This document shows positions 2,100 through 3,514 of a stretch of 13,944 nucleotides of DNA, piece after piece (the first letter of the stretch is position 1; each line of letters starts with the position of its first letter). The stretch is from a virus. The notes beneath the pieces were generated by a model, which did no database searches, was not told the DNA's origin, and was given only the letters and a program-made list of their open reading frames with translations. Position numbers and translations under genes: made by a program. The stretch lies in the UHGV virus genome UHGV-1652516, one strand, 5' to 3'.

Positions 2100-2253
2100 A
2101 ACTATAAGCCTGAACGATTAAAAGGTCAATATGATGCGAAAAGATAGCATTCGCGACTTAAAAATACAAATCTATTAGAGCATTATCTGATTAGTAAATA
2201 CACAACTGGATCTAATAACCTCTTTTTTTTAAAGGCGAAAATATGTACCCTAA
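2100..2253 (+). promoter_or_regulatory. AT-rich upstream region of the secreted-protein cassette; probable promoter region, exact -35/-10 not assigned
   Basis: Strongly AT-rich segment directly upstream of the first cassette gene with several TATAAT-like hexamers; no single convincing -35/-10 pair could be fixed by eye. Confidence 0.3.
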
Positions 2254-2280
2254 ATGAGTTATAAGGCAGGTGAGGTTATA

Positions 2281-2928
2281 ATGAGAAAACTATTACTACC
2301 GTTATTATTTATGGCTGGGACTGTTAATGCAGCATCAAGCGTAAAGGAGATTTGTACCGATTATACGAAATACCTTGGGCACGTTTACGGCTTTGCTGTC
2401 AGTCAAGACGAATCCATGCGCAAGAAGTTACTGTCAGATATGAAACGCCTTAAACTTTCTGAAGCGATGGTGCAGCAAGAACTGTATAAAGTCGCAACCA
2501 ACGAAAATGCTAAATATCAATATTCTCGCCTGTTAAATCCCGACGCAAACGAGATCAATCGAAGCTCTTTCGATTATATGGTAAAGGCATGCGAAACCGC
2601 TCCTGATTTTGCTATTCCTAGCTGGGGTGTGCTGGTGGCGAGCAATGCCGTTAATAAAGAAGACGTTGGAAGAAATGGCATTGATTCAATCAGAAACTCA
2701 CCGGGAATGCGCCATCAAAACGTTCAGGGTACGCTTGAAGAACGGGCCAGGGGGCCGGGTACAAACTCCCCAATGGGAAACCTCTCCCCGGAGGAATTGC
2801 AAGAGTATAACCAACGGATGGAGCAGTATGAGAAAGCTGCACGCGAAAAAATGGAACAACAAAAAAACGGATCTCTTAATACTTTCCAGCAAGGTTTAAA
2901 AGCGCTTAATTTACCCTATGAATGGTGA
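2281..2928 (+). CDS. Secreted (periplasmic) protein of unknown function with signal peptide; C-terminal region shares a motif with the tape measure protein
   Basis: Start placed at ATG 2281 rather than the track's 2254, because GGTGAGG lies 7 nt upstream and the product then begins with a canonical signal peptide MRKLLLPLLFMAGTVNA|ASS (basic n-region, hydrophobic core, V-N-A cleavage motif). No lipobox. AT-richer than the tail genes. Contains NSPGMRHQNVQGTLEERARGPGT, which recurs in the 1130-aa protein. Confidence 0.75.
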   Translation: MRKLLLPLLFMAGTVNAASSVKEICTDYTKYLGHVYGFAVSQDESMRKKLLSDMKRLKLSEAMVQQELYKVATNENAKYQYSRLLNPDANEINRSSFDYMVKACETAPDFAIPSWGVLVASNAVNKEDVGRNGIDSIRNSPGMRHQNVQGTLEERARGPGTNSPMGNLSPEELQEYNQRMEQYEKAAREKMEQQKNGSLNTFQQGLKALNLPYEW

Positions 2929-2979
2929 ATATATGGTGGTTAACTAATTAAAATATTAATATCCAAAGGAGATAAATTA

Positions 2980-3456
2980 ATGCGCATCAAACGATTTTTA
3001 CTAGTTATTGCTTTGCTTACTCCGTTTTCATCAATGGCAAATGTAAGCAAATGGTCAACCGGCGAGACTCATGGTGTTCGTTCTTATGCTGTTTCCAGCA
3101 AAGATAATTATACGCTTACATTTGAGTGCGATGTTGAATTTAATAATACGGATCCCAATCAAGTAGGAACACGACTACTCACTCTCATGAAAACAGAACC
3201 TGGCGGTGAGTCATTTGATGCTAAAAAAGAACAAATAACGCTGAAAGTTGGTGATGATGAATATCCTATCAGTTCTATCGGTTCCTCTGTGGGTGATAGT
3301 TACTGGTATGGTTTTTGGTCAGATACCCCTGATATGGAAGTTAAAACATTCGATGCATACGTAGACGGAAAAAAAATCGCAACATTTACGCTACGTAAGG
3401 CCGCAGAGCTTTTCAACGCGGCACCTGAAGATGGCTGCCTGAAGCGCGCAAAATGA
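2980..3456 (+). CDS. Secreted (periplasmic) protein of unknown function, 158 aa, with signal peptide
   Basis: AAGGAG lies 8 nt upstream of the ATG. N-terminus MRIKRFLLVIALLTPFSSMA|NVS is a canonical Sec signal peptide. Two cysteines in the mature part; AT-rich codon usage. No family recognised. Confidence 0.75.
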   Translation: MRIKRFLLVIALLTPFSSMANVSKWSTGETHGVRSYAVSSKDNYTLTFECDVEFNNTDPNQVGTRLLTLMKTEPGGESFDAKKEQITLKVGDDEYPISSIGSSVGDSYWYGFWSDTPDMEVKTFDAYVDGKKIATFTLRKAAELFNAAPEDGCLKRAK

Positions 3457-3473
3457 CCTGTCACAAATGACTA

Positions 3474-3508
3474 CTCGTAGAATCGGTTAACACACCAGAT
3501 TCTACGAG
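3474..3508 (+). promoter_or_regulatory. Stem-loop closing the secreted-protein cassette and overlapping the ribosome-binding site of the next gene
   Basis: Perfect 11-bp inverted repeat CTCGTAGAATC (3474..3484) / GATTCTACGAG (3498..3508) with a 13-nt loop. The 3' arm contains the GAGG (3506..3509) that serves as Shine-Dalgarno for the ATG at 3515. It is followed by GTTTCA, a poor U-tract, so it is more likely an RBS-occluding or weak-terminator structure than a strong terminator. Confidence 0.4.
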
Positions 3509-3514
3509 GTTTCA

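Follow-up and report, generated by a model that had tools for sequence, protein, structure and literature searches.

The stretch analysed here (the window; 13,944 nucleotides of the virus genome UHGV-1652516) carries two adjacent genes for exported proteins, open reading frames 1 and 2 (ORF1 and ORF2; Table 1), between an immunity region and a tail operon. Alignment shows the window to be the immunity-I (immI)/tail part of a Punavirus, a P1-like myophage. Escherichia phage vB_EcoM-Ro157c2YLVW matches bases 1900-3700 at 99.9% identity, and phages P1 and P7 match the flanks at 95-99%. The same alignment places the two genes in the sim (superimmunity) slot, which lies between the c4/icd/ant immunity region and the late promoter LPsit. 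A three-way alignment of the window with P1 and P7 shows conserved flanks around an interior that has been exchanged. The variable DNA begins just past the C1 operator Op51 (~2183) and ends at ~3462, just before LPsit; the P7 allele parts from the window immediately after 2182, and P1/P7 identity returns at ~3462. P1 holds simA-simB-simC in this slot, and P7 holds upf50.5 (a lipoprotein) and upf50.0 (DUF5384). Eight highly variable regions of low guanine-plus-cytosine (GC) content have been described in P1-like phage-plasmids, sim being one of them (PMC9603915); it has also been called a hot spot for recently acquired DNA in these elements (PMC6906374). Its slot is the one in P1-like genomes known for exchangeability, low GC content and a tie to superinfection exclusion (PMC9603915, PMC6906374, PMC2409434, PMC9177967). 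We consider it very probable that the region is a sim-slot accessory cassette encoding exported proteins. The slot has at least four common alleles, and the cassette of the window is the two-gene unit simA(full-length)-ORF2(PF27224).

Alignment with P1 identifies ORF1 as the full-length form of SimA and P1 simA as a truncated remnant of the same gene, a stub left behind when simB-simC replaced the remainder. The P1 SimA protein (52 amino acids, aa) is identical in its first 45 aa to ORF1, counted from the upstream in-frame ATG at 2254 that serves as the simA start in the P1 annotation, and then diverges and stops. Homologues of ORF1 form only 28 clusters in a collection of 5.8 billion proteins, all from Enterobacteriaceae contigs of ~90 kb, and several of these clusters carry the name 'simA domain protein'. 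An exhaustive hidden Markov model search of 1.84 billion representatives with the SimA profile gave 12 matches, which are SimA relatives or fragments except for one artefact, and found no SimA relatives outside P1-like elements; the sole match outside them, a 2425-aa repeat protein (P0052), was rejected as a low-complexity artefact. The AlphaFold2 (AF2) model of ORF1 comprises an all-alpha domain at aa 20-130 (predicted local distance difference test score, pLDDT, >90), a low-confidence linker at aa 131-170 and a long C-terminal helix at aa 170-208; the tail of the protein behind the linker is variable. A relationship to the protein tyrosine phosphatase (PTP)-like phytases (PF14566) was considered and rejected. 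The match scored 26.6 bits against a cut-off of 27 and covered aa 24-109 only, and the catalytic C-x5-R of these enzymes is absent from ORF1, neither cysteine (ICTDYTKY, ACETAPDF) being followed by x5-R. A +1-frame ORF of 96 aa lies inside ORF1 (2609-2899) and is entered by database entries frameshifted near codon 135 (for example P0008, 205 aa); frameshifted SimA entries such as this are probably pseudogenes or assembly errors.

The full-length SimA shares a segment with Sit, for which two counterparts were located (motif copies A and B, Table 1). Sit is the tape measure of these phages; it contains an SLT domain and is ejected on contraction (PMC9024508, PMC12810830), and it is not resolved in the published P1 electron cryomicroscopy structure (PMC12810830). 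The SimA and Sit PHROG profiles match reciprocally (E ~1e-7 and ~1e-6), and the segment is the sole similarity of any slot protein to the rest of the 80.7-kb phage genome. At the nucleotide level the ORF1 and Sit segments are 56% identical, and their third codon positions agree in 15 of 38 cases; such scrambling of third positions indicates that the likeness has been kept at the protein level and does not stem from a recent conversion. The core N-x-x-G-M-R-x-Q is invariant or nearly so in the SimA family alignment. The most distant member (P0046, found on contigs too short to reveal the gene neighbourhood) retains the core together with the extension VKGSMAERARG, and the motif is the last element kept in the truncated SimA of the type D allele, described below. 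In the model of ORF1 the segment falls in the predicted flexible linker (pLDDT ~50). Its GC content is backbone-like at 49.6%, whereas the rest of ORF1 is at 41-43%, a difference compatible with a segment grafted long ago from sit into an AT-richer gene. On the side of Sit, copy A forms a local conservation peak among diverged Sit proteins, just C-terminal to the SLT domain. Copy B and ~50 surrounding residues are absent from Sit of the Salmonella/Klebsiella/Cronobacter type, and by this comparison copy B is a duplication peculiar to one lineage. Only P1-like phages have the Sit segment; a word-indexed search with the Sit motif region returned fragments only, and a search of PDB sequences with the Sit C-terminus gave no match. 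At locus L046 (sit at 13762-17151) Sit is only 77% identical to that of the window, though pmgC, tub, pmgB, pmgA and bplA are 98-100% identical, and its region ~aa 590-890, including the SLT domain, is swapped for another version; SimA of this locus is 65% identical, and where the window has ORF2 there is a SimC-like gene.

ORF2 is assigned to family PF27224 through its homologues. These form 16 clusters on the same ~90-kb Enterobacteriaceae contig type, all with a precomputed PF27224.1 match and some 97-98% identical to ORF2; a Pfam scan of ORF2 itself does not report PF27224, and the family label comes from the homologue clusters. The AlphaFold model of ORF2 shows a beta-rich fold (pLDDT 74), for which Foldseek against BFVD found only two small uncharacterised phage proteins, one of them named 'putative adhesin' (E=8.5e-7, TM 0.6). 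The possibility that ORF2 is a diverged SimB or SimC was rejected on negative BLASTP and hhalign comparisons; with SimC, BLASTP gave E=0.82, and the ORF2 family set against the SimC pair reached an hhalign probability of 0.3%. With SimC as the query, tblastn found no match in any part of the phage genome to which the window is 99.9% identical. Pfam, NCBIfam and PADLOC contained no family that explains ORF1 or ORF2, and PADLOC gave no match for either at E<=0.1.

As read from the sequence, both products carry a Sec-type signal peptide with a basic n-region, a hydrophobic core of 11-12 residues and small residues at -3/-1: MRKLLLPLLFMAGTVNA, followed by ASS, in ORF1 (2281-2331) and MRIKRFLLVIALLTPFSSMA, followed by NVS, in ORF2 (2980-3039). 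Sequence inspection found neither a lipobox cysteine nor a further hydrophobic segment in either protein. Because the signal peptides come without lipobox or membrane anchor, both products are predicted to be periplasmic and soluble. Two cysteines are present in each mature protein, C25/C104 in ORF1 and C50/C153 in ORF2, and both pairs are conserved in the respective family alignments. The genes are preceded by Shine-Dalgarno sequences, GGTGAGG at 2269-2275 (5 nt upstream of the ATG at 2281) and AAGGAG at 2966-2971 (8 nt upstream of the ATG at 2980). In these respects the initial annotation of the region was borne out: the two genes exist as it described them, between the c4/icd/ant region and the tail operon, with strong and correctly spaced Shine-Dalgarno sequences, Sec-type signal peptides (here again as read by eye) and two cysteines in each mature protein. 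Its statement that neither protein resembles a recognised family no longer stands, ORF1 being full-length SimA and ORF2 a PF27224 protein, both of uncharacterised families.

The alleles of the slot were surveyed in 69 IMG/VR loci and in reference phages, and all of those surveyed encode exported or envelope proteins. Allele A, the window type, consists of SimA-215 and ORF2, and allele A', the Salmonella type, is a diverged pair of SimA-246 and ORF2. Allele B is that of P1 (SimA stub, SimB and SimC), allele C, of L046, combines SimA-221 with a SimC-like protein, and allele E is the P7 pair of upf50.5 and upf50.0. In allele D, SimA ends early, at residue 163, and is accompanied by an ORF2 homologue of 27% identity (hhalign 99.8%) and by a membrane/SH3 protein. 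Slot alleles of 2.3-2.5 kb (L030, L033 and L035-L042) have a third gene behind a truncated SimA and a diverged ORF2 homologue. Its product, of 325-394 aa, has a hydrophobic segment in its centre and an SH3-like domain at its C-terminus, and RefSeq names it 'SH3 domain-containing protein'. In two further loci (L032 and L034) a TnpB gene of the IS200/IS605 type (402 aa) lies between the C1 operator region and simA, at ~8.7-9.9 kb in locus coordinates. The pmgC-tub backbone occurs in 509 of 5426 complete Escherichia coli genomes; in this set the P7 allele was counted in 164 genomes, the P1 simBC allele in 129, the complete SimA+ORF2 allele in 79 and the type D allele in ~70.

The SimA+ORF2 pair is found in E. 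coli, in diverged Salmonella relatives and in Cronobacter phage JK004. In JK004 (L081, 3060-4109) it stands directly upstream of pmgC and downstream of bplB/pmgG-like genes, with no adjoining immI; therefore, the pair is linked to the tail/sit operon and not to c4/ant. Between the E. coli branch and the Salmonella/Klebsiella/Cronobacter branches, amino-acid identity is 60-80% for ORF1, 52-62% for ORF2 and 70-82% for the tail backbone, Sit being the most diverged at 46-52%. Where synonymous sites are unsaturated, the ratio of nonsynonymous to synonymous substitution rates (dN/dS) of the pair is 0.17-0.23, and by this measure ORF1 and ORF2 are under purifying selection. The initial annotation had taken the cassette to be inserted and horizontally acquired, which is doubtful for the SimA+ORF2 allele. 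Because its divergence in the distant branch is like that of the backbone, and because P1 simA is a truncated copy of ORF1, the pair is probably the ancestral occupant of the slot and not a recent insertion; the P1 and P7 versions look like replacements.

The base composition of the cassette was compared with that of its surroundings. GC content is 40.6% in 2100-3510 against 47.8% in the remaining window, and this is the lowest value of all 1411-bp windows (mean of non-overlapping windows 47.4%, standard deviation 1.9, minimum 43.4). The deficit is uneven and comes mainly from ORF2 (41.3%; 31.4% at third codon positions, GC3) and the intergenic DNA (31% at 2183-2280 and 20% at 2929-2979). ORF1, at 44.0% (GC3 42.6%), is barely under the tail genes (44.4-49.5%). 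The description of the pair as AT-richer than its flanks holds, then, for the region and for ORF2, and barely so for ORF1. The two elements said to bracket the pair are both present, and neither belongs to the cassette alone. According to the P1 annotation, the AT-rich stretch upstream is the divergent c4 promoter/operator control region, which is common with immI, together with at best a weak predicted PsimA; the equivalent of PsimA was not called by a consensus promoter scan of the window. The hairpin downstream is real (z=-5.4) and is conserved in P1 and P7. The -10 box of LPsit lies in its left arm, and the Shine-Dalgarno of pmgC (GAGG, 3506-3509) overlaps with the right arm. A terminator owned by the cassette was rejected as its identity: there is no U-tract, the terminator scan gave no call at this position, and the element lies in the P1/P7-conserved flank and overlaps LPsit. 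As the hairpin includes the -10 box, it would fold only in transcripts that continue past the cassette and not in late LPsit RNA, and it may act as an insulator that keeps prophage-state read-through transcripts from expressing or translating the tail genes.

The neighbouring features are those of a P1-like phage. On the left, the a1b1 targets of c4 adjoin the c4 antisense RNA; this target region is overlapped by a sub-threshold Rfam match to isrK (2013-2094, minus strand), which reaches 43.7 bits where the gathering score is 50. To the right of the cassette follow, in order, LPsit, pmgC, tub, pmgB and sit, and then baseplate and tail-fibre genes. The tail-fibre ORF at 12133-13869 contains four tandem units of ~39 aa (...TQKG[LI]VQLSSxTNSTSExLAATPKAVKAAYDLA...).

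Table 1. Positions of the sim-slot genes and of associated features in the window.
Feature	Position	Strand	Basis
ant1	598-1635	-	window gene order
icd	1632-1853	-	window gene order
c4 antisense RNA of the immI region, left neighbour of the cassette	1901..1986	-	Rfam RF01695, 62.7 bits, E=3e-11; agrees with aligned P1/P7 c4 annotation
Divergent control region common with immI: c4 promoters (P1c4 -35/-10 at 2129-2101) and C1 operator Op51/Oc4 (2168-2184)	2101..2184	-	promoter scan TTGACC-17-TATAGT; P1 annotation via alignment
Site matching the predicted sigma-70 promoter PsimA of P1, ATTAGT-15-TCTAAT, weak	2190..2216	+	P1 annotation via alignment
ORF1, SimA-family protein, 215 aa	2281..2928	+	phrog_3933 E=1e-136, full length; homologue clusters; AF2 model
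Sit-like segment of ORF1, aa 122-168; core N-S-P-G-M-R-H-Q-N-V-Q-G-T-L-E-E-R-A-R-G	2644..2784	+	BLASTP against Sit; PHROG cross-matches
ORF2, exported protein, 158 aa; beta-rich fold; conserved C-terminus APEDGCLKRAK	2980..3456	+	phrog_3429 E=1e-79, full length; alignment; AF2 model
Late promoter LPsit: -22 box and -10 TAGAAT (3478-3483); conserved right flank begins	3464..3483	+	P1/P7 annotations mapped by alignment
Stable hairpin	3474-3508	+	-24.1 kcal/mol, z=-5.4, 0/200 shuffles fold as well
sit, 1130-aa tape-measure/injection transglycosylase	5681-9073	+	Pfam SLT at aa 748-857
Sit motif copy A, aa 927-969, counterpart of the ORF1 segment	8459..8587	+	BLASTP 49% identity, E=6e-9
Sit motif copy B, aa 997-1017, ...LRNSPGMRKNNV	8669..8731	+	BLASTP 57% identity over 21 aa

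Superinfection exclusion by P1 is due to sim/simC, and DNA injection may be the step that Sim blocks (PMC2409434, PMC9177967, PMC8546580); simABC is non-essential and dispensable for lytic growth (PMC10695390). A moron-like accessory cassette with superinfection exclusion, which the initial annotation had listed among the candidate roles, as its candidate function is a reasonable reading, given that the slot holds sim in P1, that all surveyed alleles encode exported or envelope proteins and that the P1 sim genes are non-essential. By analogy with P1, superinfection exclusion or phage defence at the envelope may well be the function of the cassette, a proposal that we regard as about evenly balanced. 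The best overall explanation, which we hold with the same middling confidence, is a sim-slot SimA+ORF2 pair acting in periplasmic superinfection exclusion, possibly by mimicry of Sit. Mimicry of Sit as the means of exclusion is a less likely and tentative proposal. Its specific form, that SimA is a periplasmic mimic of the tape-measure protein and excludes P1-like phages by titrating an envelope partner of the ejected Sit or by plugging its transglycosylase, is somewhat more doubtful still.

The steps of the proposed mechanism can be set out as follows. The pair would be made in the lysogen from the weak predicted promoter next to the C1 operator, and it would act in the periplasm on incoming P1-like phages after adsorption, at DNA entry, as reported for P1 Sim. 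SimA would be a small helical carrier that displays the flexible Sit-derived peptide, and this peptide would serve as a decoy, competing with the ejected Sit of the superinfecting phage for its binding target. The target could belong to the host envelope, or it could lie within Sit, in the SLT domain or elsewhere. ORF2 could be a partner or a stabiliser of SimA.

Several observations weigh against this explanation. The window phage is without simC, for which alone among the genes of the locus exclusion has been demonstrated, and ORF2 is no detectable homologue of SimC or SimB by BLASTP and hhalign. The promoter of the cassette is only a weak predicted one, and the signal peptides were judged by eye from the sequence. 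About half of the SimA family keeps only N-x-x-G-M-R-x-Q, with a Cys-containing tail replacing the VQGTLxERAxG part; therefore, the extended mimicry of Sit is not universal. The residues before G-M-R co-vary weakly between SimA and the resident Sit copy B: they agree in a few genomes (NSP/NSP, NAR/NAR, NAP/NAP) and mismatch in many (NAP/NSP). Considering these mismatches, co-variation was not counted as evidence for mimicry.

Among the alternatives, a lysogenic-conversion factor that benefits the host, the periplasmic pair altering envelope physiology, adhesion, stress tolerance or virulence of E. coli, is unlikely, and it is the alternative that survives best. It draws on the exported products, the AT-rich region and the accessory slot, on the wide occurrence of the cassette in plasmids of clinical and animal Shiga toxin-producing and extraintestinal pathogenic E. 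coli, and on the 'putative adhesin' label of one of the small phage proteins that are the sole significant fold matches of ORF2. That label, however, is an unverified name. The family is restricted to P1-like elements (the 12 representatives among 1.84 billion proteins), the pair stays tied to the tail/sit operon even where its upstream neighbour differs, and the Sit-derived motif points to phage biology. A further alternative, by analogy with T4 Sp, would have the pair help or protect the resident phage, either as a periplasmic inhibitor of the Sit transglycosylase that spares lysogens or infected cells wall damage, or as a modulator of Sit in the phage's own entry or release. The position of the shared segment in Sit (aa 927-969), directly C-terminal to the SLT domain (aa 748-857), and the linkage of the gene pair to the sit operon would fit such a role. 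P1 and P7 virions are, however, infectious without full-length SimA or ORF2 (PMC10695390), so that a helper role would be dispensable, and the proposal overlaps with exclusion, inhibition of an incoming Sit being an exclusion mechanism as well. We regard it as rather improbable.

It is very unlikely that the cassette is decaying or functionless cargo of a recombination hot spot, with the likeness to Sit a fossil of old illegitimate recombination. The truncated P1 simA, the frameshifted P0008 and the insertion-sequence (IS) insertions would be expected of such a hot spot, and the backbone-like GC content of the Sit-like segment (49.6%) within an AT-richer gene would suit a fossil. Yet both genes are intact in the 79 complete E. 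coli genomes, amino-acid identity is 52-80% across lineages whose synonymous sites are saturated, dN/dS is ~0.2, and the motif core and the cysteines are invariant, a pattern that already largely refutes the proposal. That the two genes belong to the tail module proper and encode ordinary structural or assembly proteins of the virion, as their strand and their place immediately upstream of pmgC-tub-pmgB-sit might suggest, has a negligible probability. Their products carry Sec signal peptides, and the genes lie upstream and not downstream of LPsit and have no PHROG structural annotation. P1 and P7 build the same virion with unrelated genes in their place, and the sim genes of P1 are non-essential (PMC10695390).

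Periplasmic superinfection exclusion by the SimA+ORF2 pair would bear on a locus whose existence and variability are already known, and whose genes stand in databases as 'hypothetical' or 'simA domain' proteins. In the literature other than the 2004 P1 genome paper, we found no description of the intact SimA in a common allele or of P1 simA as its stub, nor of SimA+PF27224 as the likely ancestral state or of a tape-measure-derived peptide in SimA. An earlier notice of the SimA-Sit likeness in the P1 genome paper is unlikely, because the P1 SimA stub is without the segment. About 9% of complete E. coli genomes (509/5426) contain P1-like phage-plasmids, which are major carriers of transduction and resistance genes, and the sim slot probably decides which P1-like elements gain entry to a cell with a resident one. 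The slot is occupied by at least four unrelated alleles at comparable frequencies, and only the P1 simC allele has ever been tested. A role of the SimA+PF27224 allele, if shown, would explain patterns of incompatibility and exclusion among P1-like elements. Mimicry of Sit, if true, would provide a handle on the periplasmic step of P1 DNA injection, pointing to a needed segment of Sit and to its binding target, and most of the value of the finding is in this testable decoy hypothesis. If the pair has no effect on phages, the cassette is one more uncharacterised accessory gene pair.

The closest known system is the P1 sim operon. The two share the slot between Op51/c4 and LPsit, the flanks and the first 45 codons, P1 simA being the 5' end of ORF1, and they have in common products with signal peptides (in the window as predicted), low GC content and a non-essential accessory status (PMC10695390, PMC9603915). 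They differ in that the window has no simB or simC and its ORF2 is related to neither, and in that its SimA has 215 aa and the Sit-like segment, whereas P1 has a 52-aa stub that lacks it. The exclusion phenotype of the P1 operon has only ever been tied to simC, which encodes a Sec-processed protein (PMC2409434). The allele of P7, RCS47 and SJ46 resembles the cassette in its slot, its two-gene layout and the signal peptides of both products. The proteins are unrelated, however, those of P7 being an outer-membrane lipoprotein and a coiled-coil DUF5384 protein, and P7 has neither SimA nor the Sit-like motif.

In its proposed working mode the cassette can be likened to T4 Sp, which inhibits the gp5 lysozyme, T4 Imm, HK97 gp15, Ltp of the Streptococcus phage TP-J34 and lactococcal Sie2009, small envelope proteins of phages or prophages that have been proposed to keep DNA and the ejected tail-tip or tape-measure proteins from passing the envelope. 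Neither in sequence nor in fold was a relationship of these proteins to ORF1 or ORF2 found, and in contrast to the predicted soluble periplasmic products of the cassette they are membrane-anchored or lipoproteins. To our knowledge, none of them has been described with a copied tape-measure segment, and we know of no description of exclusion by a decoy made from a fragment of the injection machinery. T4 Sie has also been cited as a superinfection-exclusion protein (PMC13128918). Phage morons are additional genes of deviant composition that are transcribed independently and lie between conserved genes of related phages. The cassette resembles these morons, the class to which the initial annotation had assigned it, in being present in some relatives and replaced in others, in its lower GC content and in its position between conserved modules. 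As an exchangeable, low-GC accessory slot the locus fits that description. The cassette departs from it in that the scans showed no autonomous terminator, that its promoter is only a weak predicted one and that its SimA+ORF2 allele looks ancestral to the P1-like lineage and not like a recent addition.

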